A DNA stretch of 63,986 nt, the filler included, from Folioceros fuciformis (lineage: Eukaryota): NCBI GenBank assembly GCA_049999805.1. It is 14 parts of 14 records of this genome, joined end to end, with 100 filler letters (N's around TTAATTAATTAA, not from the genome) between each part and the next. Parts side by side here need not be neighbours in the genome. Positions count along the whole stretch, not along the records: positions 12,985 to 20,745 come from JBNGIO010002144.1; 13 more parts are not named here. The stretch is one strand, 5' to 3'. Both the position numbers and the translations under genes were made by a program. Shown in pieces: positions 886 to 56,186 of the stretch (position 1 is its first letter; each line of letters begins with the position of its first letter). Below the pieces are notes generated by a model, which was not told the origin of the DNA, made no database searches, and saw only the letters and a list, made by a program, of their open reading frames with translations.

Positions 886-3087
886 CTAATGGGCAGTGCC
901 CTTAATGTCAGCGATAGGAATCTCACAAATGCCAGCAGAAGCAGTGGGCTTCTCATGTATTAGTTTCGAAAGGGCCTTGGTTAGAAGGTCCGAAACATTG
1001 TCTGTAGTAGAAACATATGACATTGTTACCTCTCCTGAATATGCTGCTTGACGAATGAAATGGTGGCTGATCTCGATGTGCTTCGACCTCGCATGGAAAA
1101 CTGGATTTCGGGAGAGTGCGATGGCGGATTGATTGTCACAATGTAATGGAATCGATACTGTCTGGGGTTGCTGTAGTCTGTTGAGGAAACTTCGTATCCA
1201 GATGATCTCCTTGGAAGCTTGGGTCATTGCTGCATTTTCGGCTTCCGTTGAAGAAAGACATATGGTAGAAAGCTTCCTGCTGGACCATGAAACAACTGAT
1301 GTGCCTAGGAAAGTGCAATAGGCAGATACACTTCATCGTGTATCAGGATCCCCGGCCCAATCCGCATCGCAATAAGCCGAAAGGTCCAAGCCATGGAAAG
1401 GCTTGGAAAAACACAAGCCAAGGCGAGAAGTGCCTTTTAAGTAGCAAAAAATTCTTTTGACAGCAGTCTAGTGAGGCTAGCGTGGATTCTCTAAGAACTG
1501 GCTCACAACTCCCACTGCACGAGTGATGTCCATGCGGGTCTGACCAGAAAGGTAGATCAGAGAGCCAACAGCTTGACGGTAGGGAATGTTGGCCTTGACC
1601 TTTTCTCCTCATCGCTGGTTGGATACTGTTCGACAGACAGCTTTTCACCTAAAGCCATGGGGGTTGCCACTGGTTTAGCATCAAGCATGTTAAAGCACTG
1701 GAGAAGCTGTCTCACAAAGTGTTCCTGGTGGATGTCGATGGTGCCTGCAGCCGAATGAAGATGAAACTAGACACCAAGGGAGAAGGTAAGTTTGCCAAGA
1801 TCAGTCATATCAAACTTAGAGAGTGGATTCTAGCCATAAGAGCAACTCTGCCACTCTTATGGCTGAATAGAGCTGCTGAAGAGGAAGTTGTCATCGACAT
1901 AAACAGTGAGAATCAAAAAGTCTTCTCCATCCCAAAGAATGTAAACACTCGTGTCGGCATCCAAGCAAGTGAAACCAAGCTCCATCAAGAGCTTGTGAAA
2001 AACTTCTTACTAGGCTCGTGAAGCCTGCTTGAGCCCATACAGAGTTTTGAGAAGCTTGCAAACCTTGTCCTTGTCAATGATAAAACCCTCAGGCTAAGTC
2101 ATGTATATGTCTTCCACTAGCAAGCCATTGAGAAAGGTTGTTTTGACATCCAGTTGGTGCACGAGAAGGCTGTAATGAACTGCAAGGGCTAATAGAATGC
2201 GGACAAAGGTAGACTTGATAACAGGAGCGAATGTTTCATAATAGTCTAGACCTGGAATTTGACTATAGCCCTTGGCCACTAGACGAGCTTTGTATCTTCC
2301 AACAGAGCCATCAATGTTCAGCTTTTTCTTGAAGACCCACTTGCAGTGAACAACCTTTCGACCAGGTGGGAAGTCCACTAACTTCCACATTTTGTTCTGA
2401 AGAAGGGACTTATACTCTGAATCTATGGCTGCCTGCAAAAAACAGCCTCAAGGCCAGCTAAAGCTTCAGTGTAAGTTAGAGGTTTGCCTAGGGAAGCTGT
2501 AACACTAAGAACAGTAGCTGGAGAAAATTCAGTAAAGGCTGTGTGTGTAGAAAAGGGAGGCTCCTTCCACTCATGCATGGGACGTCGAATTCAGGTAGAC
2601 CGACGGAGTGGTGAAGTTATCTCCATAGGGTCATTTTCGGCAACAGACGTGGGTATGGACTCAGCTGAAGGAACTTCTACGTCAGATAGAGTCGGAGAAT
2701 CATTGACATCACAAGGCTCTATTGTTGATAGCAAAGGCGTTGAAGGACACACTGCATCCGAAACCTTGTCATTCTCGCCATTTGGATGATCAGAAGTTGG
2801 AACTGCTCTAGCTGGCTCCTGAGAAGGAGAAGCATCCTCGTCGTCGAAGATACTGATTTCATCAGTATCCATGAGTGCTGAATCTTTGATTCCGTGGATA
2901 GAAGAAGGGAAAGGAGTAGCATTTGGAAGCAAAGCTGCAGTATGACGGCAAAGAAGGGCTGCCTCATGAAAAACCACACTCTTGGAGATGGTGAACTGAT
3001 GAGTGATAGGGTTGAACAACTTGTAACCCTTCACTTCTTTTGAGTAGCCAACAAAAACATGTCTTGAAGCCTTAGGATCTAATTTAG
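886..3087 (-). mobile_element. Ty1/copia pol remnant (integrase C-terminus, RT, RNase H), degenerate
   Basis: KLDPKASRHVFVGYSKEVKGYKLFNP; WKLVDFPPGRKVVHCKWVFKKK...RYKARLVAKGYSQIPGLDYYETFAPV; HQLDVKTTFLNG; CDNQSAIALSRNPVFHARSKHIEI; frameshifts. Confidence 0.95.
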
Positions 3088-3187
3088 NNNNNNNNNNNNN
3101 NNNNNNNNNNNNNNNNNNNNNNNNNNNNNNNTTAATTAATTAANNNNNNNNNNNNNNNNNNNNNNNNNNNNNNNNNNNNNNNNNNNN
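3088..3187. other. Artificial contig linker (44N-TTAATTAATTAA-44N). Others start at 5826, 9300, 12885, 20746, 24837, 29214, 36368, 41618, 44158, 56195, 60382, 62723
   Basis: Identical 100-bp structure 13 times; the 12-mer gives stop codons in all six frames. Confidence 0.98.
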
Positions 3188-3278
3188 GAAAATAAGTAGA
3201 AAAAGAAAACCAAACCATACCACTATTAACCCTTTTTCAACCAAAACCAACTACTACCCCAAACTTTGGAGGTTCACA
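3188..3278. mobile_element. LTR terminus, family A, inserted into a copia RT
   Basis: Matches 1-179 and interrupts RT directly after FSPVVRFQSVR. Confidence 0.8.
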
Positions 3279-3568
3279 CATCTAACGGATTGAAATCTTA
3301 CCACGGGGCTGAATGTCTCTTGATAGTCTAGGGCTTCAACTTGCGTGAACCCCTTGGCCATGAGTCTAGATCTATAATGTGCTATCTCTCCTTTTGAGTT
3401 GACCTTATGCTTGAAAACCCACTTGCACGAGATGGGTTTCCTGCCAGGTGGCAAATCCACTAACTTCCATGTATTATTCTTGATCAAGGATTGATACTCA
3501 TCCTCTATTGATATGCGCCACTTATCACCATCAGGGCCAGACAGGGCTTGCTTCAAACTAATTGGCAA
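3279..3568 (-). mobile_element. Ty1/copia RT N-terminal fragment
   Basis: EYQSLIKNNTWKLVDLPPGRKPISCKWVFKHK...RSRLMAKGFTQVEALDYQETFSPVV. Confidence 0.93.
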
Positions 3569-4341
3569 TGATCAAGTTTACTGACACTCCCAATCCCTAG
3601 ATTTTCTCCCATCCTATATGCCTTACATCCGCAAGTAGTTGGTTTTGAAAGCTCCTCACCGCCCCCTTGTCTAACAAATTTGGATAACGATTCAACAACT
3701 CCTGCACACGTGCTATTGTCACAACTTGAGCCTGCACATTTATGTCACAATAGACATATTTTCTGATCTTCACACCACTTCGCAACATTGCTTCCAGACC
3801 TGAGCATATGCCACCAAACGACTCCACCAGTGTGATGCCTTCATCGGTGACATTCCACTCAATGGTCCTTTAGTCCACTAGATGGTTGTTAGCAATCACA
3901 CTATGGTCTTGGCAGTATGATTTGGGGTGGTACTCCACATGCTCAACATCCTTTTGTTTGTACAACATTAGCTTTCTCATTGCTTGCTGAAATGTAGGCC
4001 TACCTTGGATTTGTAAAGGTGCTATTGTTTGCCTTTGTTGCTCCATTGCCGCCTCCACCAACAAGCTCTCAAATGTGGCTTCTTCAACGTTGTCTTCTTT
4101 CAGCTCGTGCATTGATGTCACTAACTCCCTCAGCTCCAGACTTGTTGTACACACTTGATACACCGTGCGAGCCATCATTGCCGCCTCCAATTGTCAACTC
4201 CTCCCCCTAGCAGGTACAATACTTCAAACCCTAACAAACATTGTAATCGGCCATGTCAGTAGCCAAACAAGTTACCTTAATGCATTTAGCATCATCTGTC
4301 CTCGGCTTCAATGCTATGTTTAGCGATTTGGCCGTCTCTCC
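3569..4341 (-). pseudogene. Retroelement aspartic-protease C-half + linker + N-terminal part of a C5-cytosine DNA methyltransferase (truncated)
   Basis: GETAKSLNIALKPRTDDAKCIKVTCLATDMADYNV/LGFEVLYLLGGGVDNW, then ITLVESFGGICSGLEAMLRSGVKIRKYVYCD...DVRHIGW...VNLIIA. Collinear with the fuller copy at 36849-38640. Confidence 0.8.
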
Positions 4342-5440
4342 TTAAAAGCTATGAAGCTAGCTATGGCACAATCGAGGTGAGGAGGCGAGGTGATGGATGT
4401 TCTTGGGACCCATGGAAGGAAAGCGTCCTCTCGAGTGTGAAGCAAAAAGGATATTGTTTATTGCTAAAACAAATTGTCTTATACAAAATATTAAGCTGTT
4501 ATTAAACCGTCTAAACTGTAAATGCGAAACTACCTGAATCGTTTGTTACTGTTCTTAACATAACGGCTCCTGCTTTTCTAATACTCCCACTTAGTTGAAG
4601 CATGTTTCAGTTCTAAGGGGAAATTAAGGCCTGTAAAAGTAGTGATGATGAATGCACGGTTGCATGCATATTGTGACACTCCTACACATGTCTAAGTTAC
4701 TCTCCACGATTACTCTTCAACGCTTCCTATAACTAGAGCTATGGTTGTCTTGAGTCCTCTAAAGCTGTCATCTTGGTGCTCTCAGTCTTGTGTCTTGCTT
4801 CCTGTGGAGGCAAAACCCCGGGCACTGATTGCCGACGGGTTCCACCTTTAGTGGCCACACTTATCCCACTGTCGTTGAGACATTGGGTTTCGTTCCCACG
4901 AAGGAGCGATGGGGTTCCTTGCTGCTGTGGATGGAGGGTCGGACTTGATCAACTCGATGATGGATTCGAGGGCTCCCCTCCAGCTCCGATCAGGCGTAGG
5001 ACAGGCCTCGCTGTCCGACGGTCAGCTGCACCTCTCTTGGTGCCCACAAACTCACTCCAGCCACTACAACGACTCTAACCTCTCAGATCTGCGACTTCCT
5101 TCACTCACTTCACTCACTCTCTTGTTCCAGCACCAACACCAACAACTACCAGCAACCAGCAACGACACCACTACCTTCTACACTTCCCTACGGACTCCTC
5201 CTACCCGGCAAGAGTCACTAGACTAACCCCAAACAAAAGGACGAAGGGAACACACTCCCCTCTTGGGTATCTCCTCCCCACAACCTTACCATACGCCATG
5301 AGACATGGCCGGCCTACAGCACTTGACCAAGCAAGGAACAAGAGTGGACAGGTTGAGAGAAAGACACACCCTTTACAATCAAGAGCTAGGGGCAAGCCCC
5401 TTCACCCTGGTCATTACACCTTGTGATCCTACAAGACACT

Positions 5441-9693: not shown

Positions 9694-10659
9694 CTGGGGA
9701 ATTTCTTAGGAATCCCTAGACATTTGTGGAGGATTATGGAAGGTCGTTGAAGTTGCTATAAGATTGCTGGAGAGTGGGGAACGTTGCTGGAGAACTGAAG
9801 AGAAAACGGCTGAGAAGTTGCTGAAGAAATGAGGAAGAGTGCTGAAGATTGAATACGAATTCTGGAAAATTTTTGAGAGATTCCGGAGTGTTTATGAGTA
9901 GCTGTTGTAGCTTGTTGAAATTCATGAGGGATTGTGGGAGATTGCTGAAGAATCGCTGAAGATTGGTGGACATTGCTGGAGATTGAAGCCCTTGGGGTAG
10001 GCCTGTGAGAATAATTGTGAACAGAGCTCCTCTGTGTGTTTTGTGTGTGAGGGGAGTGTTGTATGAGTGTGTGGGGAGGTGTGGCTGATCCACAAGGCTT
10101 CATTCCCCAAGGATCAGCCCTTGCATGTGTGAGGAGCATGGAATAAGCCAGCTCTGTGAGTTTGGAAGGCTTGGGCAAAAACCCGTGGGTAGAAACCCGC
10201 AGCAGTGCCTGCGCCGAAAATAATTAGTTAGGGTTTGGGGTGGGACCCACCAAGCTAGTGGAACCACGACGGCGGTAGTGGAACCACGACAGCGGTAGTG
10301 GAAACCAATACCGCAGTTGTTGTGTAACGGCCGAGGTAGTCGAGAGCCGAGGTACTACAAGCACCTCCGGGGTAGCTGAGAAGCCGGTGGTTGAAGGGAC
10401 CCCTTCCTGGTAGCCGAAAGAGCCCTTTAAGGTAGTGTAGGGTTGTGGTAGCTTAGTCGCGATGGAGGTAGTGGTAGTTGAACCAACAGGTAGTGGAGTT
10501 GGGGTAGTTAAAGTCCGACCTAGGCAGTAACTGACATTTAGAAGAAACCTCAGTTACTTGGCACAAATCATTCCCTTGGGATCGAATCCTAGTGCTATAA
10601 CGACATAGAGGGCTTGTGTGGACCTCGCAGTACCCCAGGGTACAATATTTTCCCCCACA
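9694..10659. mobile_element. Long LTR, family B (ends ...TTTTCCCCCACA), inserted into copia pol
   Basis: 10560-10659 is the reverse complement of 18485-18585. CA terminus followed directly by copia pol sequence. Confidence 0.7.
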
Positions 10660-12175
10660 ACTTCCAAGATTACCTTGTCATGAAGTGCTACTTTTACTGA
10701 GCTCACTTCTCCTCATTTTGATCTTGAAGTAACACGACTGTATGCGTCAGAACCATTCTCCACAACATAAGACTTGTTTGCTGGTCTAGATGTAGAACAG
10801 ACTCAAGTTCCTTTTACTTACCCGGATTCTGATGGTGAAGTATTGATTCTGGCTGATCTTGATGGTGGACGAGTTGCAATTGATGGTTCGCAGGCACAGG
10901 ATGCCCAACCAGCTATAAATCCTGCCAATCAAGATGACGACATTCGGTCAATTCAATTTGAAGACTCAATCAAATATGATGATTTGGTAGTAGAGGGGGT
11001 TCGTCAGGAAGTTGTGAATGAGGAGGATTTAACTGAAACTGACGTAGTAGCTCCTGTGGAAGTCCCTGAAGTTAAAACTTCTTGCTCTCCAGTGCAAGAG
11101 CTCAGGTCTCGGGACAACTGGCTTGAACCTCCATATCAAGCCCATGATTTTCGTAGACATGGAGCACATGTATCAGATCTTGATGTCCCAGATGTACGAC
11201 CAGACCCACAGAGTTATTCAGAGGCTATGTCAGGACCTAATGTTGAACACTGGAGAGTTTCCATTGATGATGAGTACAACTCGTTGATGAAGAACGGCAC
11301 ATGGGAACTTGCAGACCTTCCCCTTGGACGTAAGCCAATTACCTGCAAATGGGTTTTTAAAAACAAGCTTAAAGCTAATGGCACTATATCTAGATACAAG
11401 AGCAGACTTGTAGCTAGGGGATTCTCACAGGTTCCAGGAGTAGATTTTGGAGATACATTCTCACCTGTGGTCAAGCCACCTTCCGTCAGAATCTTACTTG
11501 CCCCTGCTGCCGAGTTTGATCTGGAGCTTCATCAAATGGATGTTTGTACGGCCTTCCTGCATGGAGAGCTTGAGGAGGCCCTGTATATGGTTCAACCTGA
11601 AGGGTTTTCAGTCAAAAGTGGCCTCATAAATTTTGTAAACTATTGAAGACAATCTATGGCCTAAAACAGAGTCCGAGAGCATGGTACAAACGTATCACGA
11701 AGTTTATGATTCAGTCTCGTTTCCTACAATCCTCGGCTGACTCAAACGTGTTTTACTTAGCTGAATCTGGCTCGTTTGTGATTCTGGCTCTGTATGTTGA
11801 TGACGCCATCCTCCTCAGGAACAGCATGTCTCAACTAAATACTGTTAAGGCTCTTCTGCGCAGTGAATTTGGGATGACGGATCAAGGCCCTCTTCGAATC
11901 TGCTTGGGCATACAGATTTTAAGAAACAGACAGAATGGTACCATAGTACTTCACCAAACTAAATATTTAAAGGAGATCTTAAAGCATTTTTACCTTGATG
12001 AAACTCAACCGGTGTCCACTCCCTTCGTCGTTGGTGAAAAGCTCACTGCAGATCAATTCCCAAAGTCTGCAGAGGAGGAAATGGAAATGGCCTCTGTCCC
12101 TTATGCAGAGGCAGTTGGGTGCCTAATCTTCTTGGCTAACTGGACTAGGCCTGACATTAGCTTCTCAGTTAGTGT
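10660..12175 (+). mobile_element. Ty1/copia pol remnant (INT-RT linker and RT)
   Basis: DPQSYSEAM...EYNSLMKNGTWELADLPLGRKPITCKWVFK; HQMDVCTAFLHG; IYGLKQSPRAW; LYVDD; TRPDISF. Confidence 0.95.
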
Positions 12176-12884: not shown

Positions 12885-13085
12885 NNNNNNNNNNNNNNNN
12901 NNNNNNNNNNNNNNNNNNNNNNNNNNNNTTAATTAATTAANNNNNNNNNNNNNNNNNNNNNNNNNNNNNNNNNNNNNNNNNNNNGCGCAAACTTCTTTAG
13001 CCCAAAACTTTGTGGGCCCATGAGAGAATGGGTCTGTGCTGATTTCTTCATCAGCGTCTGGCAAAGACCCAAGGCCATTCACTCT

Positions 13086-13700
13086 CTACATCATGTATGT
13101 CGTGCATCGTATATCGATGTCCATCGCCTCAACATGCCTCCCCCTCTGAATAGCAGCATGAAGGAACAATCCGGATCCTGCGCAAGCATCCACAACCCAG
13201 TCTCCTTCAACCGAAAACATGTTCACTAGCATTCCCATCAACCCCAACGGCTTATGATATGGGGAGACGACCATCGAATCAACCGAGTGAAAAAGATGTT
13301 TTTTCACGACAGCCCCATGCCTTATCACTCTCGGCAGAAGAAATCCCTGATTCGCAAATAAGGCTGCTTTGGTGGTATGAGCTTCCGAGTGGACTGCACT
13401 TCCAACTATTAGGTACTCCACAGTCTCTACTGCCCCTGCATTTGGAGGAATGTTGGTCTTTTCCCAAACCAATGTTTGTATGGTGCCTTTCTTACACCAT
13501 GGCCTAAGTGCCTCTCTCGCCTTTGAGATGAGGTCAACCCCATGCATGAGGACCACTCGATAAACATTGCTACTTGTGCATTCAGAAAACCCCTTAATCA
13601 TGTCTTCAAGGTCCTCGCTAGTCAACTGCCTGTCATAGTCATGTCATATGAGACCATGAGGCAAATCAACGAACAATAGGGTATAAGGTCTCTTTACCAG
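13086..13700 (-). pseudogene. N6_N4 DNA methyltransferase domain (beta order: catalytic motif IV before SAM-binding motif I)
   Basis: DLPH(G) is in frame with ORF 13086-13625 across a single TGA at 13644-13646; HKP...VVDACAGSG motif. Confidence 0.88.
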
Positions 13701-13963
13701 AAATCCGCTCATCTCCAGAACGCTTCTCTGCATCACTTGATATTTTGTTTTTTGGTTGCTGTTGGGGACTCTGAACTCTGACAAACCAGCATCCATATCG
13801 GCGTTTGCTAGTTTATGCTTCTCCTCTTCTAATTGTTTCTAGTTCCTTGCTGAGTACGCGTAATCCTAGAACGGCTTGGGAAACAATTCCAGGTCGTTTA
13901 TATCTACAGGTTTCTACCAACAAATATCTTCATCAGCAAACTCTGTTACTTTCATTAGTCAAA

Positions 13964-14003
13964 GTGGTTGGAGTGCGCCGGTCGTCTAGCGCACTCCAAC
14001 CAC
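13964..14003. repeat. Intronic hairpin, 15-bp perfect stem, containing the 22-bp palindrome variant
   Basis: GTGGTTGGAGTGCGC-(CGGTCGTCTA)-GCGCACTCCAACCAC. Confidence 0.85.
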
Positions 14004-14744
14004 CTAACCATAGAAGTTGGACAGGATTCATGAAGCAATTGAAAGAAAACTTACCACTTTTGCAAAGGCCGTCTGGAATCGAAGAAGATTCGCGTCTTCA
14101 ATGTGCTTGGGGTATATTTGCTCAGTTTCTTCGAAGGTTGCGCATTTTAGAGCTATCTGGAACGCATGCTGTATCAGGTGAATCTTCTTCCTTTTGCCCA
14201 CCTCTGCGTCCATGTCCTTTAGTTGAAGCTTCCCCTGTCTGACCTTCTGGGTTACTGCGATGAGCATCTCCTCCCCTTTTGCACTTGCTGGAACTCCTTG
14301 AAAGGCCCCTCAAGGCCTGCCCTGCATTGCGGTAACCTTTTTTGTGGACTCATCAGCCATAGGGGTGCTATTGGAAGCTATGCCAGCTTCCCCTGGTTTC
14401 CTCTTTGCTTTCGCCCGCTTCTTCGTGCCTGTGCTCCCTCCTGCTACCTGTTCCGGACGCTCCTTCCTCTCCCACATCTTAAAAATCCTGTCAACATTTT
14501 CTCATAGGACTCCACTGCACCTTGCCACCCGATATGGTATTGTCTGCCTAGCTACCATCTTGTATACCTAGTCAGCATCCCTTGGGTCACCTGCCTCATC
14601 CGTCCTCCAGCAACCTGTAGAGATTAAACTTCCACTTCACTGGTGGCTTCTCGTCCAGTCCATGGCTCATGTAGAAAATATCCAACTTGTCATGGATGTA
14701 TCTTACTTGCTTGATGAAGCCCATCCTCTTCCGTTTGTCTGCAA

Positions 14745-15140
14745 AAACATTGTGATCTACTGCGAGGACTCGCTTTTCCTCATCCGTCAGGCCTGCATAA
14801 ACATGCCCTTCCATCCACTCGTATTTGTCCTTTGTTGGGTACATCTGATGCTTTTGCAACCCTAAAGCTTTTGCATAGCTGCGAAACAATGGTTGCCCCC
14901 AAGCACTCCCATCTGGTAACCCTACGCTGTGATCTTCTCCAGCAAAACATCTTCTTTCTTCGAACCCTGTTTCGAATCAATCATGCATAGGAGAGGTAAA
15001 ATACCTTCCTTCACAGACCCTGTCTGCATCTGCCTGACCCGGTACTTCATCCAGGCTTTGTCAACCTCACGAATCTATGCATCCGCTGTTATATAACTTA
15101 TAGGGTGGAGCATATCCACATGAAGATCAAATGTCGTCGA
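14745..15140 (-). pseudogene. ParB/Sulfiredoxin-like N-terminal domain
   Basis: GGNH-C at 14886-14900 (TGT could be deaminated CGT, giving GGNHR), followed by VYxGLTDEExxxLAxxHN. Confidence 0.7.
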
Positions 15141-15918
15141 GTGGATCCTTTTTGCATGCGCTTTTCTTCGAACAACATAGAGCTAGTCCTCATCCTGCAC
15201 AACCCTCTCCATCCGTTCAACGTCTGTCTCTACTGTTTGGGGCGGCTCGTCCTCGAAAGTAGGCCCTTGAGCCTGCCGCCTCTGTTTCTGCCTAGTAGAA
15301 GCCTCGTTGATAGGCCCTACCGACCTGCTCTTCCTCTTCAGGGGTGAAGCTGCCACTGAACCACATCAGCTGTTACATCCGATGTCCACGACAGGAAACC
15401 AGACTAGACCAAATTGCAAACCGATTAGCAAGATATGCACCTGTGGCTCTTTTTTGAGACCTCGCAGGAGGTCGTGGCTGTCTTCTTCTTCCTTTGGGCT
15501 GGGGCGCCGGTAGGCCGGCGCACCGTGTTCTGCTTCTTCCTTGGTGGCGTCACCTCAACGGGCGATTCCTCTTCTTCTTCCTGTTCATCGTGTGAGCCTC
15601 TTCCAGCATCCAGTGCCTCATTGAGGTTGTCTTCGGTGGAGGAGTAACCACCCATCTCCTTCTCTTGGTCACTGCTTAGCTCCTCCACCTCACGCAGTTA
15701 GTCTTCCGACAGCTCTAGCTGCATGCGCGGCATCTCCACCGGCCTCTTCGTCACCCTTCCTGTGCTAACACCAAAATCTGCGAAGGTCGCAATTCGTTGG
15801 CGCTCTCCGGCAATCCTGGATGCTAGGGCTTGGTTCTTCAGGACGCAATCCGCACACAATCGCAAGACAGTTTGACAGAATTGTTTGCCTCCCTGTTACA
15901 CCCACAAGATGCAAGTAA

Positions 15919-15958
15919 TTAGGGTTTAGGGTTTGCTGGGTTAATGAGCCTATATAAG
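15919..15958 (-). promoter_or_regulatory. Putative promoter of the ParB-MTase gene (TATA-like element followed by telo-boxes)
   Basis: CTTATATAGG, then AAACCCTAAACCCTAA on the - strand, about 200 bp upstream of the reading frame. Confidence 0.45.
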
Positions 15959-16018
15959 TAAGCAACAACAACTGGGATAATTAACTATTGGGTTAATAAA
16001 CTGAAATAAATGATTAAG

Positions 16019-16633
16019 CTAATCATATACTAACATCTTGCACATTCAGACAATCTGTGTTTCGTCTTCCACGCCATCAACGGATGCACAGAGAATCCAC
16101 CTAGGCCTCCTTCCCTCATTGTCCGGCAAGCCTTGGAAACCGTTAGTCCACAGAGCCATGAGCGGCACTCATGGCAAATTGTAGTCTTCTGGCTCCTCTT
16201 CGATCACTAAAAACCACTCTTTGTCTGTGTTGAACCTTTTGGCAAGGGTGTCTTCAAGTTTCTTTAGCTTCAAGCGCCCAACAAAGTTGTACGCATTTGG
16301 AATATTGGGGTTCTGACTACCACCATTGCTGCCACCCTGAGTCACATTCACAGGCACATGGTTAACATGAACCTCACTAGCTAAGCTGTTTGAGGCACGA
16401 ACGCTCCCTCCTGAATTGTCTTTCCTCAATGCGAGAGCTGTTGGCTGTGGTGTAACATCTCCTACTGTGATCACTTGTCTCCGCTAGTTTTCTCTCTCGA
16501 CAATAAGGCTAGATGCAGCGCAAGCTAAAGCTTTCGCTCCCTGTCGTGGTTTCTTCAGCCTTGATGGTGCCTCCAATACTTCCATATCAATGGCCGCATT
16601 TAGTTGCTTGTTGCTTTGCCAGCCAGCTGCCAT
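16019..16633 (-). pseudogene. Small accessory ORF (~204 codons, three in-frame stops), possible C-terminal SAM-like helical domain
   Basis: ATG at 16633 is in frame with ORF 16169-16474 and continues to TAG at 16019; FVGRLKLKKLEDTLAKRFNTDKEWFLVIEEE. Confidence 0.5.
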
Positions 16634-16934
16634 CTTCGCCTGTGCGTGAGAGGAAGTCAACGAGAAAACTTCAGAAGACTAGAGCTGATGCAGAAGCACT
16701 GAGGAATGAATTAAGCATTCAATGACAAGATTTGAAGTCCAACTGTGAAGTTGAATGTGTGTTGCCTGAAATAGGCAGAGTGTTTGAACAACGTCCTTTG
16801 CATTTATGCTAGAACAACGATTAAAGGCGTTGTTCCCGACAAACAACAGCTACTTGATTTGGTGATCAAACGTTCATATAAAAAAGGCGGCTTAATTATG
16901 CCAGCGTAACCTGTATTCAATGAATTGGTGAGTG

Positions 16935-18210
16935 ATGGTAGAATGCATCTTGCAAGGAAGCTCCTTTGCGATTAATCAGTGCAACATTGGCATGGATTGG
17001 CAGGCTTCTTCCTCAGGCGACATGGTGCCTATGAAAACATTGGAGTTCAATTCTCAAGGTAGGCGACAACTACGGTTGAAGACTGGCATTTGTTTTTTGA
17101 AGTTGAAAGTCTGATCTTCTTTGTTCGCGTCTTGCTGCTTTGTTCCCGAAGATTCGGAAGGAATCGACATCGACTTCCGACCATCTCTTGTACGTCTAAG
17201 TCTTCTGGATGGCATCCATACTCCGGCAAGCCCATTGCGAACCCAGTATCCTTTCACGCCAGCAACCAAGAAAACAACACCTCTGAAACGGAATGCGGAT
17301 CGCACAATCTTGGGCGAGGACTTTGATGATTCGGATGTAGAAGGAATTGCGAGTGGACATCAAGTACCGGGAGAATCGACCGGGGAGCACTTCTAGCCCG
17401 AAGCCAAAGGAGGGGATGTCATGGCCGTAGACTCTATAAGGACGACATGCATATCGTCCCGAAAAACATACAACCTGAAATCATCATCCGAGTCCTTGAT
17501 TGAAGTTCGTGGAGATCATCGACGCAGTCGGAAGAAAAAAATCTCGACTGTACCTGAGGAAAAGTGCTTTGAGATCCGCATTTCTGTAGATTACCTCAGA
17601 CTATGTTGTGCAAAGCAGTGTCTTAGATCCTTAGGTAAACCAAGCTTTCGAGATTTGAGATACCAATTTCTAAACCTGTGCAGGACAGAGCAAGAAATGT
17701 TTTTGCAGACCCTGTTTGATGTCAAGCGTACTTCATATGGATGCTCGACAGCGGTGGCTTTTCTCATTGGATCTGTTGAGATACGCTGTTGTTGGGATGC
17801 CTTTAGACGAGTTTTCTGTATCGGTGCGAACAGGTACGAGGCAACAAAAGAAAGAGCTTTGGATAACATTATGTGGGTGGGCTCTGTCCATGCAGAAAAG
17901 CGCACCCGGGACCACGCTATTGTTGCATGTGTTTGGATGGATCAATTATTTTGCCTCCTTGCAGAACGCATGCCAAACATTGAAGTGTACCATCTTCCCG
18001 ACTCGTACACAAAAGAGGAAACTTTTATGGAGTACAAGCAGCAAATGCAACGAGCAGAATAGTATAGTGTGTCTTACTCTTATTTCTGTCAATTGTGGGC
18101 TTCACATTTCTACAAGGTGCAAATTCCGAAGACCAACAGATTTTCGCTCTATATAATCTCGGATTACCTGAAAAGGAACATTAGAGCAGAGTCTAATAAG
18201 AAGAAACAAG
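16935..18210 (+). mobile_element. DNA transposase N-terminal region (Sola-like/DUF7869-type), pseudogenised and truncated by an LTR insertion
   Basis: Single frame across ORFs 16932-17114, 17121-17396, 17421-18062 and beyond. CCAKQC, RCCWDAFRRVFCIG, WM..AERMP..YHLP..Y, VSYSYFCQLWASHFYKVQIPKTNRFS. GTATGT donor at 18211; TATA-like element at ~16876. Confidence 0.62.
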
Positions 18211-18253
18211 GTATGTGAGCGCATTTTTTCAGTTACGTTTCAGGTAGGCATTT

Positions 18254-18446
18254 GAAGTGCGTCGGTCGATCGGCGCACTTCGCTCCATCCTTCCCTGATA
18301 AGTGCACTGGTTGACCGGCGCACATTTTTCTTCCCATTGATGTTGAGAGTGCGCCGGTCTACTGGCACACTCCCCCTGTTTTGCATCCTTTAGCTTTTCT
18401 TGTGACTGCTCTGTGGCAGGTGTGCGCCGGTAACCCACCAGTTCAC
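18254..18446. repeat. Cluster of 22-bp palindromes (consensus GTGCGCCGGTCGACCGGCGCAC)
   Basis: Copies at 18257-18278 (20/22), 18302-18323 (19/22), 18349-18370 (19/22) and a half copy at 18422-18431. Confidence 0.85.
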
Positions 18447-18484
18447 ACACTTTTTCCTTATTCTCATGTGTAGGTCTTTGCTGT

Positions 18485-19630
18485 TGTGGAGTTAAAATAT
18501 GGTACCTAGGGGTACCGCGAGGTCCAAACAAGCCCTCTATGTCGTTGTAGCTCTGGGATTCAATCCCAAGGGAATGATTTGTGTTAAACTACACAGGTTA
18601 GCATCTAAAGTCAAGTAGCACCTAAAGCTCGACTGACTCACACGCACACGTCCAGTGCTCAGACCTTACCAAGCCCCCTTACTTCTCCCACCAGATGACT
18701 CCTCGACCACCCGGTCACCCCAGGGACTACCTTCCCCTAGACTACTCTTGGTTGCCCAATGGGCTACCCCCGTTGCCTTTCGGGCGACGGTCGCCTGACA
18801 GTCTACCACTCGTGGGTCCCACTCTCTCTCTCTCTCCCTCAATTCTCTCTCTCTAGGATTTTCTCTTCCTCTAGGTCGTTCCTTCCCGACTGATTACCTC
18901 CTGCCCGTGCATCCCCTTTGGCGCTTCCCTTCCTTGGTTCACCACAAAACCGCCCTACTCACCTCATAAGCAAGCGCACGCACACATGAACAACAACAAT
19001 CTATTAGAGGCCTTCCACCCGCGGGATCTCACACCTTAGATACACCCCCTACGGTCTCCATTCAGCTTCTTCCCAGTCTCTCCAGTCTCATTGCGACCAG
19101 TCACTCATACACACCACGTCTCGTTGCACCCCACACACATTACCCACCTCGCCCCCGGGGTTTCCCCGGCTTTGTTCTCTCTTACCCCACTGCTCGGTCA
19201 CTCGCTCCTCCTCCTTCTCACACACGCGCACCCCCGTGCTCTCCTTTCTCTAGTTCTTCAATCTTCTTTCTCAGTGATGCCCCCGCTTGGGCTCCAATTA
19301 ACGTTGAGGAATGATGAGGTACTGGAGCTAAGAGAAGAGGAGTCCCTTCCACTCCGCACTCACGGATTCGGCTCCGACACCCGCACCACCCCACGTGACC
19401 ACCTCGAGGATAGCTGGGGAGCTTCTCTCCCACTCGGCGAGGCTCCTTCTCTCGATTCGTCCCTGGACCTGATCACGGAGCGCCCACCACCTACACCCGC
19501 ACCCCAGGTTGCTACGTGCGCTCGCTTGCCTGGACCTCCTGTCCAGCAACGGCCATCGCTAGGTCCCTGCAAGGTCGACTGTTCGGCTGGTTCTTGCTGA
19601 TTTCTTAGGCCTCCAAACCGGCCTCTTGTA
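18485..19630. mobile_element. LTR family B (left end TGTGGAG; right boundary approximate)
   Basis: 18485-18585 is the reverse complement of 10560-10659. Confidence 0.6.
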
Positions 19631-19760
19631 CACGGTGATGGCAGTTTTTTCCGCCATAAAGTTTGTCAGGCAGGGGAGCCGCGCTCTTAAATTCTGAGCG
19701 ACTTAGGTCCAAATAAAGCACGCTAAAAAATCCTATTCTAGCCTGCATTTACTATCGCCG

Positions 19761-20745
19761 TTACCCATGCCGCTGGCGGCTTCCTCCTGGCCTTCGCGTG
19801 TCACCCCTTGCTGCCCCTCCTCTTGCTCTTCTGCCCCTCCGTTGGTCCGGCACATCCTCCCAGAGGATCTCCACATCATTGCTGCTGCTGCTGGACCTAG
19901 CTGGCGGCACAGGTGGGTCCCGCCGCTGTGGTCCACCACTCCTCCTCCTTCTCTGGTTGCTGAGGACAGCCACAGGCCCCCATTCTTCCCAGCGCTGGGC
20001 CTCCTCTTCCGTTAGTTCCTCCAGAACTGCCTCCTCATAGTAGTGGGGCAATCCTGTCACCCACCATCTGTAGTGGTAGAGTCCCAGACGCGTCCTCAAC
20101 TGTAGGACGTAGCCCAACGTCCCTCCTGTGCCCATACGTACATACAGAAATAGCCTTGCTCTTCCCCTTCACTCTCTCTGGCCTCATCCCGCTCCCGCTT
20201 GTATCTGTCAGCCAACTTTTGAGTCTGCTCCACGGCGGCTATCTCCATATGCCTTGGCCATTTCCTGTTGCATCTCCAGGTTAGTCTCGTGAGCCTCCCT
20301 CCCCTGAGCTAGCAGGGTCCCCTGTTGCTCTTTCAGCGCCTGCAATTCAGCCCTCGCCTCGCGCGCCTCATCCTCGGCTTGAGCCTTCTCCCTGTCTAGG
20401 ACCCGCTGCTTCTCCTCCAGCAGCTACCGCGCCATCTCCGACTCCGCCAGTTGCCTCCTTGCTTCAGCCTCTCGCTCACGAGCCTTCTCCTCCTTTCCCC
20501 AAGCCTCGGCCTCTCGCTCCGCTTGTACACTTAACCGGGTCAGGGCCCTAGCAGCCTGATCCAGGAGGTCTGCTTGGGCTTGCACCATCGCAGCAGTCAG
20601 CTCGGGTAGGTCCACCTCTTGCACCCCTCCTGTGCCCATTCCTGTCGCCGTGATTTGTCTGCCCAGGAATTCTCGCAACTTGTCCAGGTCCCCCACCTGC
20701 AACCTGTCTCTCTGAGGCCTGCACTTGAAAATGTCCTTCCACCTT
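19761..20745 (-). pseudogene. Coiled-coil accessory ORF of an LTR retroelement
   Basis: E/Q/A/R-rich heptads; EAHETNLEMQQEM..QKLADRYKRERDEA is homologous to 27511-28026. Confidence 0.6.
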
Positions 20746-46799: not shown

Positions 46800-49700
46800 T
46801 TAATCATCAACGTCGGTATCGTCTGCCCGGACTTTTCTCTTTCTTCCTCGCTTCTTCGGCTGGACTGGCCCAACCTCGTAGCTTGTGGCTGAATCAAGCG
46901 CACATAAGCGCAATGCAACGGAAGTGATGTTTGATACCTTCACGGCTGCTGATAGTGAATACCAGTGCCTCCAGGATGATCGAAGGTAGTCGGTCTTTAT
47001 CATCAGTTCCAGAACAAAAAGGGCCTGTGTCACCTGGACCAACAACAACAACTGTCAGATACACTTGCGGCCAGCCTGGGACAAATTCTGTACTCAATTC
47101 AAGAAAGCACCAGGGCATTACCTCAAACAAGCACTTCGCTGCCTTCACCAATGCCCGCCATGCCCTCCGTCTGCTCTCCTCACCCTTCCCAGCTTCCAGC
47201 ATGCCAGGAGTCAACACAGCTTCCACATCAAGGATACTCATCTTCAGCCATTTCAGCAGCACAGCTCGCGAACCATCCAACGGCTTCATTGAGCTTTCTG
47301 GTATACTTAACTTCTTCCCAGGTTCCTGAGCCACTCCGGCAGTTTTGGCTACCAAAGGCCCTCCTGCTTTGGAAGGCATACCTTGCTGACCTGCCTCCGC
47401 CATAGAGTCCTTCACACCAGTTGCCGCTGTCAGGATAGCTGTAGTAGATCCATAAACTATCTCAGACTTTTCATTCCTAGACTGTACAGGGATTGAGCTA
47501 ACATCTTGTACATGAACAGGCTGCCTTTCAGATATCTGGGAACCGTTGACAGTTCCCAGGTCAGCTTGCAACTTCGGTCCACCTTCACAGATGTCACCCA
47601 ATTTGTTTTCCTGCGCCTCAAAGGAAGTCCCGTCACCAGTGATCTTGGGGGGCAGCGCACAAGATGAATTAACACCAGCTCCTGTAAAATCTGCTCCCGG
47701 ACTGCATTGGGCCTCAGATTCAGGTTCCATTACCGGCTTGCTAATCGACTCCTCCAACAAAGAACTTGAGACTGGTATATATACATCACATTCATTTTTG
47801 ACAGCATCCTTCTCTCCAGCATTGAGATCCTCACACCTGCTTTGATGCACAGAAACCGGTTCACAAAACCCAGCCTGGGTCCCTGGTGGCATATCACTTG
47901 CTTGATTCCTTTGTGTGGAAACATCTGTTGTGCCCACCATAGCAGCAGGGTAGTTCATAGGCTGGTTCAGTGTCAACAGGCCTGATACCAGTCCATCATG
48001 GGTAGCAATACTTCCAAAATTATCTACAGTCCACCCTGTATGAGGATTAGCCTCCAGTGCAAAGATATCAACCCCCCCATCTCCTGCTTCTGTGAAGCAA
48101 ATCATATCTTCAGGGCCGCCATTGGGCAGAAAACATGAATGGTCAGCTCGACTATCAGGTTTTGTACTCTCGAAACAGGTTCCCATACCTGAATTCGGAG
48201 GCTGCACACGTCCAAGTTCAGGGTCATCGGCACATGGGGGAAGTCCAGAACAGGCATCTCCCATTCTTGAGTCGGACATCAAACAAAGGGATGGATCAAA
48301 AGCAGGAGAGCACGGAAGGGCAGGAACAAAAAGAGGCCCCTCATTTGCAATGAATCCTATCTGGAGAACCCGATCTCGTGTAGAATCAGGGGTACCAAAT
48401 GGAATAAATGTTCCTCCACCATGGAGGCCCCATTTTGCAGTCGGCGCGCCTCCAAAAGAGGTTGCTACACCCAATGAATCCTTTTGACTGCCGGTCAATA
48501 GTACATCCTCAGGCTGTATGTTTTCAGACAGCTGCTTGATCTCTTGAATAATTTTTTCCCGAGAAGGCAACCTTGGAGTTTCTGATGTGCTTTGTGGCTG
48601 CTCACCAGATGCAGACAATCCTTTCCTCTTACCTAGCCTCTTGGTGCTACCTGATTTGTTTGACACAACCATATACCCGAAGCCCAAAGCCTGACCCTGC
48701 ACACCATCATGGATGCCTGATTCATCCTCAACACATCCAATCTCTAAAATACCTCCATCACTACTTTCCCGCGTATCACGAACAGCTGTAGCCCCTGCAT
48801 CCACAATCGGTAAGGCAGAAGAATCCCAATCTCCATAGATCTGCTGTCGACTTTGCACTTGTTCTGTTTGAGCATTGCCAGATGCAGAGATTGCTGGTTG
48901 CTTCTTCCTCACAGTCAGTTTCTTAGACCGATGCAACTCATGTGCCCGATTCAAGAAGGTTGAGCTGTGAATATGGCTCACATCCTTTCGTTTCCGCCCA
49001 ACTGACTCTGTAACCTTGTAGCCACCTGGCACTGGTAAGGTAGTGACAACCTTCTTGGATGCCTTCCGATTCCTCACATGCTGGCCACGACATTTGTGTG
49101 TAAACAGCTCAGTTTCGTTAGCATATGATTCATGGCAAAGCTTGCAATGTGGTCTGCCTGCCCATACAGGTTCCAGGCAAGCACATCGGAACATTGTATC
49201 AGCCTTTCTCAGGTTGGCCTTCTTCGTGTCAGACTTCCTCATGTTGCCTTTACTGCTCTTGCTATCAGAAGGCACCTCGCATGACCGAAAGGGACCAAAT
49301 ATCCTCTCAAGGATTCGCGTAGCCCTTAGGACTGGAAAACCCTTGGTAAACACTTTATCTCCTTCCTCCTGGAAAAGCATAACGCGAGAGGATGGCAGCC
49401 CTCGGTCCTGCTTCCTGTGTTCCTGCAAATCACTTCCTAATAGTCCTGCAGCCAATGACTTCTTCCACAATGAAAGATTTGCTCTCAGGGCCTTTTCTTG
49501 CTTGCTGTATCGAAGGCTGCTAATCAGTGCATCCAACTGAGACTCTGTTTCATACAGTGTCCACTGGGAACGCTCACATTTTTCATTATTGATCCCAGTG
49601 CATTCATAATCCACAGGTGGCGCCGCATCCAACTTACTGGTGTCTGCTGTACCAGCACAACGTACCACCAAACGTTCTTCCACAGCCACTTGAGGTCTCA

Positions 49701-52700
49701 TTCTTGGCCCACATATGACCCAGTAGGCGCGTCCTGAATTGTCTTGCCCAAGATAGTCTCTTCTCAAGCTCGTATTCATAATCTGCAGCTCGAGCTTCTC
49801 GATTTCTACAGTCAAAGCATCTGTACACGCTTTCTCAGCGGTATCTACAGACCCTTCCCCATCGCTTTGTTGCCTACTTCTTAGCCCAGCCACGTTAAGA
49901 GACTCTGCATGGACTGCATCTTCCTGCATCTCCGTGTGACTGTCAGGTGTGGGAATTGCAGACGGTACAACCATTTGCTTAACTGTACAACCTGCATCAG
50001 CTGGCGATTCCACTTGCAAACGTGCTTCATTCAAGGGCAACTCTGCCGGCAAGAGGCCCTTCCCCTCGTTTGAATGCAGTGTGTCTACATAACTGATTTG
50101 ACCATCCCTACACACACCAAGGATCGATTGATCTTCTGGAGGATTCCAATTAACTGCTTGCCTAGCATCCTGAATACTGCCAGTTTTATCCAAAGGTGCT
50201 TCAACTTCGATCTCAGGAATCTGATCAAGCTGAGAACTCTGTTCTAGCTTTGCACCTGACACACAGCTATTGATATCCAAGGCACCTTCTTCCCTGATCG
50301 GACTCTGCACAACCCTTTTGGGAGGTCTTCCACGTTTCCGTGCAGGCACGATTTCACCCATTTCTGTCTGTAGTTTGCGTTTCGGTGGTCTACCCCGTCT
50401 TTTTTCCAAACTTGGGTGCATATCCCGTTCTACAGCCCTGGAAAGTCCATCCTTCGGAGGTCGACCTCGTCGTTTTGCACCAACGGAGATAGTCACCTGC
50501 AGACTTTCAAATGATTTTACCTTCGGCGGCCGTCCTCGTTTGCGTTTTTGTGTCACCACAGGTGACTGCACATTTTCCAATTCATTCTCTGCAGCAGCCC
50601 TCCCTGTCGGGATTCTGCTTCGAATATCCTCTCCAGTATTTTGAAGAACCCCTCTCTCGAGACAGTCTGCACGAGTTTGTACCCTGGAACCACTGCTGAC
50701 AACAGTCCCCGCTATGGATTCCATCTCTTTCTTAATCTGCAGAACCTTTCTTGGTTGTGACCTTTCAGCAACCAGTGATTGTAATTTTTGTTGCAGCTCC
50801 ACAGACAGATCTAGGGACTTCTCCAAATTTGCCCTTACAGGTGTCGTTTGAAGGGCCTCATCACAGAGGGTTTTCAGCAAAAGCACCATCTGCAGACGAA
50901 ATTCAAACGAGAAAATATCCTCAATACTCCGAATTAAATAAGTAAAGCACTGCAGGTAAACGATAGGGGGGACATACTTCTGCAGTGCTTAACTGCCAGT
51001 ACTCTCTTTCTTCCATCCTTTCTGCTAAAGCATGGAGTGGGCTCCTTTCGATTGAAGCCCTCTCAACATAACCTCCGCTGTCTTGACCCTCACTGATGCC
51101 GCCCTCTGCCTCAGGTCTCTCAGGGAAACTGTTTTCCAGCGCCAAACACTGTGGGCAAAACCACTTTCCTTCTGGAACTTTGGCCAAGGGAGGACTCAGG
51201 CAGTATGTGTGATACTCTGCCTCACATCCATCACACAACAGTACATTGTCATAGTCAGCATCAACTCCACAAACTCTACATGATTCATCATCCCATGGCG
51301 CTTTCGCAAGTTCACCCCCTTCTGCCTTTTCAGCTAACACCTTATTGCTGTTAACATCAGGTACCGATATGGGAGCTCCAGACTTCTCAAGGGAATCCCC
51401 TAATATTTTGCCAATGTCCACAAGTTCATATTGGGCTGCGCTGGTAGCATCATCCGCCATATCCTTGCGCTTTTTCTGTGAAGCTCCTCCATGCAACAAA
51501 CTCAGAACCTGCACAAACAGAGGGCCTAGGTGACTTATTGGTTTGGGATGAAAGATGGTAGACAATGAATAACGCAACAAGTGGCAGCAAAGAGCTGCAC
51601 TGAACATCCACCACCATCACGCAGATATTCTGACGTTGAATACCTGCTTAGCATACAAATCCTCAAAGAGCTCAGACAGCTTTTGAGAGAGTCGCAACAT
51701 TTTGCTGCCATCTTTGTACACTGCTTCTGCATTCTTCCAAATCTGATGAGCAGAACAAAACATTACGCTAGAGTGACTGAAGGAGACTAAAAAGGTTAGG
51801 TGGTGCAACAACTTGAGAAAAGGCACCAGAAGGAAAAGGAAAACTGATGGCAACCATCACTACCTGTCGAACATCAGCTGCAAATCCTTCAGGGGACTGC
51901 AAATAAACTCCAGCCTCCAACCTCAAATCTATAGTCCTCAAATCCAGGGGCCTTACAACCCCAGAAACTGCCTTCAGTGACCCATCTCCGTCAGTGGCAT
52001 CAAACAGCCCATTCCCATAAAGGAAGCAGAAAACTCGGGAAGTATCAGCAGCTGCAACTTCACGAAGAACAAGGCGACAGCGCTGTGCGATCAATGCTGG
52101 CGAGGGAGCAGTAGTCCGAACCCGAACCCTGCACTTCCTTGGCTTCACTTCTTCCCCACGGAGCGTCGCTAAAACTGTGAGGACAGCATGCTGCATCAGG
52201 TCGAACAAGGACAACTAAGTGAAGACTACGTAAGCACAAATCAAAGTTCGTCCATCATAGGCCACCACCAAGACCAATTACACAGAAAAGATAAAACACT
52301 GAAACATAGAAGGTACTCACCTTTGTTGGTCCTGCCGCATTGCCTTTAAAAACTTCTTTGCTAATAGACCATTCCAGCATCGTCCTTGCCCATTCTGGAG
52401 GCCCTAGCTTGAGGGCCTCCTGGACTCTGTTTCTGATCCTTGCCCCCGTATTTGTGGGGATGTGTGCAATGGGATCAAGAACCTCAATCCAGCGTTCCTG
52501 CTCCTCACCCATCTGCTGTTCACCAACGGCTTCAACCTTGTTCTCTCTTCCACTGGCTTCGAGAGCCTTACTGCTCGCGGTAGGATCAGCTGGGTTTCCT
52601 CCACTGGGAAAACCTTTCCACAACGCCCTCTCTACATTGCCCAGAAGCTGAACACATTCATGACAATCAGACAATTGACTTGCAGACAAAAAGGACAGTG

Positions 52701-55700: not shown

Positions 55701-56186
55701 TGGCGGACGCTGCCCACTTTGCCATCGGGCTTCAACCTGTCCTTCACCGCAGCGGTCCAGCCGTCAAGGCACACGTTCTTGTCGGCAAGGAACTCTTTGA
55801 GCTGCTCGAGCGCCTGAAGCGATCGCGCATCCATAACCACTTCCTTCTTCTTCCGATTATTGCGAGACAAGGCTGTCCCTGACTCCGTCCCCTCGCCACT
55901 ACACACCCCATCGACTATCGCAACATCACGCGAATTCCTATCCGCCGGAGACCCCTCCCTCTCCCGCCCAAGACAGGGAAAAAAAGCGTCTGCTGCCAAC
56001 TTCGGAACTATCCTACTTGCAGGCTTCCCCGCACTCCGATCCAACTCATGGTCCCCCTTCTCGCCCCTGCAAAAGCCACACCCACGTCAGCCACCCCGTT
56101 TCGCGGACCCAGGCAAAATCCAAACCCAAGGACCCAACATGCACTTGCCTTCCGACTCTTCGCCCAGCCTCCTCCTTGCCTCCCAT
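46800..56186 (-). CDS. MBD9: Methyl-CpG-binding domain protein 9-like (3x MBD-like, FYR-like, DDT-like, bromodomain, PHD, AT-hooks, WHIM), multi-exon
   Basis: LRNYVAERNGVLEDGWR..FRSCAEVARHLGL; IWEFLCRF; PTNTGARIRNRV..PPEWAR..LEWSISKEVFKGNAAGPTK; RPLDLRTIDLRL; APWDDESCRVCGVDADYDNVLLCDGCEAEYHTYCL; LRRDYLGQD; terminal MIKTDYLRSSWRHWYSLSAA..ALRLCALDSA. 5' start tentative. Confidence 0.93.

Follow-up and report, generated by a model that had tools for sequence, protein, structure and literature searches.

A decayed, multi-copy stretch with a putative ParB-like methyltransferase gene and a divergent transposase-like gene in Folioceros fuciformis

Genes of the contig

We analysed a window of 63,986 nt from the genome assembly of Folioceros fuciformis (GCA_049999805.1), made up of 14 contigs with linkers (N44-TTAATTAATTAA-N44) between them, and describe here a decayed, repeated stretch that lies wholly within one of these contigs (JBNGIO010002144.1, window positions 12985-20745). 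Since the contigs are separate, features on the two sides of a linker are not true neighbours. The contig carries three genes, all of them disrupted: a DNA methyltransferase gene with a putative ParB-like N-terminal domain and a small open reading frame (ORF), both on the minus strand, and a divergent Cys-rich, transposase-like ORF on the plus strand (Table 1). The ATG codons of the plus-strand gene and the small ORF are 359 bases apart in divergent orientation, and the left end of the contig (12985) lies 100 bases beyond the stop codon of the methyltransferase gene.

Table 1. Features of the contig at 12985-20745, in window coordinates
Feature	Position	Strand	Basis or remarks
Pseudogene of a ~800-aa protein: ParB-like N-terminus (putative), helical middle, beta-class N6/N4 DNA methyltransferase	13086..15733	-	P0010 alignment; upstream end uncertain above 15365
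Last exon, methyltransferase domain	13086..13838	-	Pfam and PDB matches, family alignment A2
Spliceosomal intron, 216 nt, GTAAGT...CTAG	13839..14054	-	Splice sites and frame continuity
Putative ParB_N-like domain, two frames, four in-frame TAG	14599..15365	-	Frameshift between 14865 and 14802; P0010 alignment
Small ORF, 154 codons from ATG at 16633, TAG at 16484-16486	16169..16633	-	ORF scan; without a Pfam family
Cys-rich transposase-like first exon, 406 codons, 16 Cys	16992..18210	+	Stops at 17112, 17394 and 18060; GTATGT donor at 18211
Perfect 15+15 nt hairpin in the intron, inverted repeat I10	13964-14003		-19.7 kcal/mol, z -7.06; 0 of 200 shuffles as stable
Dyad motif copy GGCGCCGGT..CCGGCGCAC in the 5' part of the methyltransferase gene	15501..15526		Hairpin of -13.2 kcal/mol, z -3.4
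Array of three dyad units and a half unit, core GTGCGCCGGT / ACCGGCGCAC, spaced 45-92 bases	18248..18437		Repeats D1-D3, I1-I5 and I15; fold as hairpins
Different, far more abundant repeat, ending the element in the contig	18475..20745		Depth jump; start near 18475-18494; loose ends at 18514, 18583 and 18599

The minus-strand gene encodes a beta-class amino-methyltransferase. The ORF at 13089-13643 (-) scores 31 bits with the Pfam family N6_N4_Mtase (PF01555; cut-off 26.7, E 3.2e-7), and in the PDB it matches TTHA0409 and M.RsrI, two beta-class enzymes, over their motif I. Motif IV (DLPH, 13656-13667) stands ahead of motif I (DACAGSG, 13170-13190), the permuted arrangement of the beta class. 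Family alignment A2 is marked by a motif IV of the form D-x-P-[YH]-G, a nearly invariant QKP and motif I; the window copy has an H at the nearly invariant Q (SPYHKP, 13248-13265). An in-frame TGA (13644-13646) follows immediately upon motif IV, and the reading frame of the enzyme is not intact. Reading this TGA as tryptophan was considered and dropped, because the remaining stops are mostly TAG and one of those is CAG in other copies. The GT..AG intron preserves the frame and joins the methyltransferase exon to the exon upstream, and it is this intron that identifies the gene as eukaryotic. A candidate start ATG lies at 15731-15733. A second intron at 15370-15440 was rejected since the spliced frame meets a TGA, which leaves the 5' end of the gene uncertain. 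A TATA-box-like motif (CTTATATAGG, 15941-15965, minus strand) is found ~215 bases upstream of the candidate ATG and suggests that the methyltransferase gene may have a promoter of its own, separate from that of the small ORF.

When the 185-aa methyltransferase ORF was run with HMMER against all 1.84 billion representative proteins of the library, 56 proteins matched at E 1e-3 or better, 11 of them at 1e-10 or better; P0016 and P0026, which are simple repeats, were discounted. All ten relatives tested also match PF01555. Organism names stand on 8 of the 30 matches that were looked up, comprising three proteins of Chara braunii (589, 699 and 1825 aa), Gb_37443 of Ginkgo and two proteins each of the fern Adiantum nelumboides and the liverwort Riccia sorocarpa, while the other looked-up matches carry at most the name "hypothetical protein" or "DNA modification methylase". 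Many relatives in the databases are no more than fragments of 93-250 aa from small contigs. In tblastn comparisons the relative P0010 (789 aa) is collinear with the gene, its residues 41-198, 215-248, 405-477 and 528-781 corresponding to 15362-14865, 14802-14701, 14273-14055 and 13769-13008, and this collinearity from 15362 down to 13008 makes the N-terminal region and the methyltransferase one gene. The upstream region and the methyltransferase are likewise both matched by P0012 and P0028 of Chara, P0013 of Ginkgo and P0040 and P0051 of Adiantum. Since the long relatives are collinear over the whole gene, the fusion is real and conserved; judged by sequence comparison, the gene family is conserved from Chara to Ginkgo. 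With 56 matches in 1.84 billion proteins and a motif IV of D-x-P-Y-G, the family is small and distinct, and thus easily traced.

Several further observations concern these relatives. The longest Chara protein (P0012, GBG86584) contains the ParB-like and methyltransferase module twice, at ~97-569 and 1097-1726, with Ala/Pro- and Glu-rich low-complexity sequence between the two modules, and represents either tandem element copies fused by annotation or a genuine duplication. All the relatives with an organism name, from Chara, Riccia, Adiantum and Ginkgo, belong to streptophytes with motile sperm and mostly large genomes. None of the eight named proteins among the 30 looked-up matches is from a flowering plant, which may be a matter of sampling only. 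In metagenome and viral contigs, a scan with the Chara-type alignment confirmed none of 75 stretches, and scans with an alignment of the closest relatives yielded nothing beyond methyltransferases of phage type, 20-27% identical (4 of 28 and 2 of 53 stretches). A word-index search with the methyltransferase part against longer proteins gave no relative. Among phage records, 136 contain DNA methylases matched by the methyltransferase part (best E 1e-7). Three of the closest phage methyltransferases, examined by tblastn, are stand-alone proteins of ~236-254 aa with no ParB fusion.

The N-terminal domain, whose core is formed by VLGGNHCFAAMQKL (14865-14906) and HVYAGLTDEEKRVLAVDHN (14749-14805), is probably ParB_N-like. 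When residues 105-262 of P0010 were looked up with a protein language model, ParB_N clusters accounted for 8 of the 30 matches (best 0.94) and DUF6551 for 7 (0.91); the same look-up also gave DUF3723 and a cnidarian cluster without a name at 0.96. DUF6551, which we take to be a member of the ParB clan, appeared below threshold in Pfam for the Ginkgo member alone out of five (E 0.0017 for the segment and 0.019 for the whole protein). Phage fusions provide a point of reference: the ORF at 3570-4769 of phage locus L009 matches N6_N4_Mtase at E 8e-28 and ParB_N at E 2.7e-4, the latter below the Pfam cut-off. Out of 592 candidate stretches from IMG/VR, 542 were confirmed to encode relatives of one such fusion, and 80 of these loci were kept, giving a profile of 56 distinct ORFs (340-470 aa). 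In hhalign comparisons of our family with this profile, the methyltransferase domains aligned at a probability of 99.3 (E 1.8e-20). The N-terminal domain aligned with the phage ParB_N part at a score of 26.4 (P 0.0021) over the GxxR box and the strand-helix that follows, while the reversed template scored 13.2 and none of 40 column shuffles exceeded 15.8. Global-mode hhalign of the N-terminal domain against the phage fusions yielded nothing, and the ParB-like pieces of the window had no or chance-level matches in phages. The minus-strand gene is thus a eukaryotic, intron-bearing fusion of a ParB_N-like domain, as we read it, and a beta-class amino-methyltransferase.

The plus-strand frame begins with an ATG at 16992 and is no longer coding-like after 18210. 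In a language-model look-up, this ORF fell among eukaryotic clusters of hypothetical proteins, commonest in arthropods (0.95, 0.93 and 0.93), and it may resemble the N-terminal portion of a transposase family that is widespread in eukaryotes. Of the clusters that carry a Pfam domain, the nearest is one of DUF7869 (0.76, with the domain in 11% of the cluster members), which we treat as a lead only; the putative connection of DUF7869 to Sola transposons is the initial annotation's own proposal. That annotation, made from the sequence before the present analysis, had described three co-decayed genes in one contig, among them a spliced gene for a ParB-like protein fused to an N6/N4 methyltransferase, and this anatomy is borne out by the Pfam match, the in-frame intron, the collinear relatives and, for ParB-likeness, the hhalign comparison. 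The small ORF lies head-to-head with the plus-strand gene as described and is shorter than the ~204 codons ascribed to it, with 169 codons from stop to stop and one internal TAG. Among the Pfam families anticipated, N6_N4_Mtase was recovered, and ParB_N and a family for the plus-strand ORF were not.

Repetition, decay and palindromes

Contigs from three public sequencing runs of one sample (X1-X3) were placed on 12990-20740 at 80% identity or better; the depths given below are summed contig depths within a run and do not represent copy numbers. The 7.75-kb stretch received 1994, 2202 and 2174 contigs in the three runs, spanning all identity classes. In X1, 248 contigs matched at 99% or better, 441 at 95-99%, 693 at 90-95% and 612 below 90%. 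To the left of 18428 the summed depth was 100-400 in X1 and X2 and alike across all three genes, and to the right of it 1000-5000. At the tabulated places left of 18428, the variant letter was carried by 1-20 contigs per run (at least 5 in all but one X1/X2 entry), and the run pieces listed differ from the window by ~7-20%. The whole stretch at 12990-18428 is therefore repeated many times at roughly 80-99% identity, and the many diverged contigs indicate an old multi-copy family.

The copy in the window has 13 in-frame stops (8 TAG, 4 TGA and 1 TAA) and at least two frameshifts. Other copies have a C at 18060, so that the TAG found here is CAG elsewhere, and 2-bp insertions at 14606 and 15467, present in about half of the depth, are absent from the window copy. 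The differences are mostly transitions, and the observed/expected ratio of CpG is 0.66. We infer that the stops, the transitions and the CpG loss fit the deamination of methylated cytosines in silenced plant repeats. The window copy has been inactivated by transition-type stops and frameshifts; it is dead, and silent on activity. In run X3, which derives from the sample also used for X1 and X2, G>A (337) and C>T (188) differences are over-represented on 12990-20740, and many sites are altered in X3 alone (for example 14228, 14241, 15042, 15725, 17903 and 17905). This pattern looks like that of a bisulfite-type converted or damaged library, or of a separate subfamily. No RNA run was listed as containing the stretch, and the single run presumed to be RNA placed no contig on it; neither result bears on expression.

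A palindrome with the core GTGCGCCGGT recurs as a 24-bp dyad motif in and beside the genes. Allowing up to two mismatches, AGTGCGCCGGTC occurs seven times in the 64-kb window, all of them between 13972 and 18432, against a chance expectation of 2.07, and none of 100 shuffles reached seven. Some run contigs join one dyad unit to another (joints from 13995 to 18345 and similar); these joints reflect the shared motif and are not deletion derivatives.

The repeat that begins near 18475 is of a different kind. Its first part, 18475-18583, is 86% identical by blastn to 10562-10669, a segment of another contig that immediately precedes a Copia ORF. This ~110-base segment (18475-18600 / 10562-10669) reaches summed depths of 3700-5300 in the runs and may be part of a long terminal repeat or leader, or a small independent repeat. 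The sequence at 18600-20745 is a repeat rich in pyrimidines and in GC (0.54-0.59), has a summed depth of 1000-3000 and no recognised coding content, and is unrelated to the element at its left. Elsewhere in the window, other contigs carry a Copia reverse transcriptase and gag, a ribosomal L1 gene and a large MBD-DDT-WSD gene, which together indicate a plant-like nuclear assembly. The last of these corresponds to open frames of 1364, 267, 314 and 466 aa on the minus strand at 46897-56086, with WSD, DDT and methyl-CpG-binding (MBD) domains, and probably constitutes one large chromatin-reader gene with very long exons. No Rfam family was found anywhere in the window.

Interpretation and alternatives

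We propose, with moderate confidence, that the stretch is an internal, dead fragment of a multi-copy streptophyte DNA transposon, of the algal kind that bears a ParB-like methyltransferase accessory gene on the strand opposite the transposase. That a transposon with a DNA-modification module is present here is the best reading of the adjacency of the genes, their equal abundance, the motif they share and the published precedent. In intact copies, the plus-strand protein, possibly of Sola1 type, would move the element. The ParB-like part would bring the methyltransferase to the element's own palindrome arrays, where the enzyme would deposit N6-methyladenine (6mA) or N4-methylcytosine (4mC). In bacteria, Dam methylation controls IS10 and IS50, and the mark proposed here might similarly time transposition or, alternatively, counter silencing by the host. 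A further step, that intact relatives are active now or were so recently in large-genome streptophytes (charophytes, liverworts, ferns and Ginkgo), with the methyltransferase binding GTGCGCCGGT dyads and writing 6mA or 4mC, is speculative, and we regard it as improbable.

Several results weigh against the proposed transposon. The run contigs are ~150-350 nt long and none spans two genes, so that no second copy with the same gene order could be read, and neither inverted terminal repeats nor target-site duplications are visible in the contig. The plus-strand ORF matches no Pfam family even at E up to 10 and had no relative in word-index searches against longer proteins and proteins of similar length; no DDE or other catalytic transposase domain was found in the contig, in which a different repeat takes over beyond ~18475. 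The neighbourhood is a mosaic of repeats, and the adjacency of the genes could therefore stem from nesting. As regards the N-terminal domain, its pieces in the window matched nothing in Pfam or PDB, and the five-member domain alignment A1 had no match in PDB, PHROGs or NCBIfam and no ParB_N match in Pfam. The hhalign probability for this domain was 13% against the phage profile and 0.3 against a single phage sequence, and an AlphaFold2 model built from the five-sequence alignment was unusable (predicted local distance difference test, pLDDT, 47.9). Finally, motif IV departs from the canonical DPPY both in the window copy (D-L-P-H) and across the family (D-x-P-Y), and any catalytic activity is putative.

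The alternative that survives best is that the methyltransferase gene and the Cys-rich gene come from different repeats and were joined by nesting or rearrangement. The missing termini and second copy, and the abundant unrelated repeat that sets in at ~18475, are what one would expect of such a mosaic, and the accessory genes described from red algae do move between transposon superfamilies (bioRxiv 10.1101/2025.02.11.637652). However, summed depth is alike over all three genes, all three have decayed in the same manner, the dyad motif is confined, within the 64-kb window, to positions in or beside the two outer genes, and the published description of the Ectocarpus element Sola1-1_Ec32 gives the same opposite-strand layout (PMC12477816). 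We consider this alternative unlikely. It is considerably less likely that the gene is a pseudogene of a domesticated host methyltransferase family of non-flowering plants that came to lie beside transposon debris by chance. Chara, Riccia, Adiantum and Ginkgo have annotated family members, and beta-class N4-cytosine methyltransferases are reported to be used in Marchantia sperm (bioRxiv 10.1101/2021.02.12.428880), but each run places many diverged contigs on the gene region itself, many of the relatives are short fragments on small contigs, and the Marchantia enzymes are described with TSPPY in place of D-x-P-Y. Least probable, by a little, is the relic of an endogenised giant virus or phage-like virus with the fusion as its DNA-modification gene: ParB-methyltransferase fusions are typical of phages, as the IMG/VR stretches and the phage methylase records attest, but the gene has a spliceosomal intron, the stretch has a high copy number with graded divergence, the gene's nearest relatives, 589-1825 aa long, are nuclear proteins of streptophytes, matches in the protein library are as few as 56, and ORF and Pfam scans of the contig found no capsid, packaging or polymerase gene.

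We therefore retain the dead transposon fragment as our interpretation. As to the remaining claims of the initial annotation, the distinctive palindrome common to the outer genes is confirmed by its counts in the window and in the shuffles. The view that the three genes form one mobile element gains from the finding of a diverged, multi-copy repeat and lacks a readable second copy, termini and target-site duplications. The novelty that it implied for the combination of genes is not supported, since Sola1-1_Ec32 and a related red-algal cassette are already published, and the stretch is a streptophyte instance of a kind described in algae and not a new category. Its interest lies in extending to the streptophyte line a recently recognised class of DNA transposons, known from brown, red and green algae, with an accessory protein that may bind the DNA of its own element and mark it chemically. 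Should active copies exist, they would constitute a transposon-borne source of 6mA or 4mC in plants and a possible natural example of a sequence-targeted methyltransferase. If the self-marking reading is true, there would be self-marking transposons in the land-plant lineage and, with them, a hidden source of DNA methylation other than 5-methylcytosine (5mC) in plants.

Comparison with known systems

The phage and prophage ParB_N-methyltransferase fusions, such as the one in L009, share with our gene the same domain order, homologous methyltransferases and N-terminal domains that can be aligned over the ParB core. In contrast to it, they are ~400 aa long, have a canonical DPPY and no introns, and are without the ~300-aa middle region present here.

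In eukaryotes, DNA transposons with TET/JBP enzymes have been described in fungi (PMC12730594) and retrotransposons with DNA methyltransferases (DNMTs) in dinoflagellates and charophytes (PMC5890265). According to these accounts, such elements likewise carry a DNA-modification enzyme of their own that is thought to act on silencing, but they are of other element types and their enzymes perform 5mC oxidation or C5 methylation. Two host enzymes are closer in type. The bdelloid N4CMT is reported as a single host gene with a chromodomain (PMC8885841), and Marchantia DN4MT1 as a sperm-specific N4-cytosine methyltransferase with a TSPPY motif, also encoded by a single host gene (bioRxiv 10.1101/2021.02.12.428880). 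Both are permuted PF01555-type proteins of bacterial or phage ancestry in a eukaryotic nucleus, as here, and neither is presented in those descriptions as repeated or fused to ParB. A kinship of our gene with DN4MT1 was rejected on the motif alone, by comparison of the published TSPPY with D-x-P-Y. A 2016 survey of eukaryotic adenine methyltransferases identified ParB-linked clades in chlorophytes, chytrids and haptophytes, and its available text gives no comparable streptophyte clade (PMC4738411). Our literature search returned no report of ParB-methyltransferase transposons for land plants or charophytes.

A related cassette is known from the red alga Bostrychia, where PAG1-3 comprise a gene of unknown function, a PF01555 protein with a SET domain and a ParB-like protein with a 2-oxoglutarate (2OG) oxygenase (Petroll et al. 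2025, bioRxiv 10.1101/2025.02.11.637652). According to the same paper, the cassette rides on Plavaka (EnSpm), Zisupton, Mutator and Fanzor elements, and inverted repeats in tandem arrays adjoin its ParB gene (bioRxiv 10.1101/2025.02.11.637652). It resembles the present stretch, as far as the description goes, in having PF01555, a ParB-like domain, a gene of unknown function and inverted-repeat arrays, and in being mostly degenerate and multi-copy. By the same description, methyltransferase-SET (PAG2) and ParB-2OG oxygenase (PAG3) are separate proteins in the red alga, whereas one gene holds the ParB-like and methyltransferase parts here and no SET or oxygenase domain was found. The trait of the algal type, a multi-copy stretch with inverted-repeat arrays beside a ParB-like gene, is thus also present in Folioceros.

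The closest counterpart is Sola1-1_Ec32 of the brown alga Ectocarpus, a 21.5-kb family of Sola1 elements with an opposite-strand gene for a 1104-aa protein that combines a ParB-like part and a DNA methyltransferase (Dinatale et al., Genome Biol 2025, PMC12477816). In the published account this methyltransferase is predicted to make 4mC or 6mA, and the authors suggest that proteins of this sort may form a new class of accessory proteins, binding and modifying the element that encodes them (PMC12477816). Compared by that description, our stretch differs in its host, a streptophyte, in the length of the protein, ~800 aa, and in being a dead copy. Provided that the plus-strand gene is a transposase, the arrangement of the accessory type is found here too, with the ParB-like and methyltransferase gene opposite it. 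Both systems, as described, have a single protein with ParB-like and methyltransferase parts, encoded on the strand opposite a transposase or transposase-like gene, within a repeated element.

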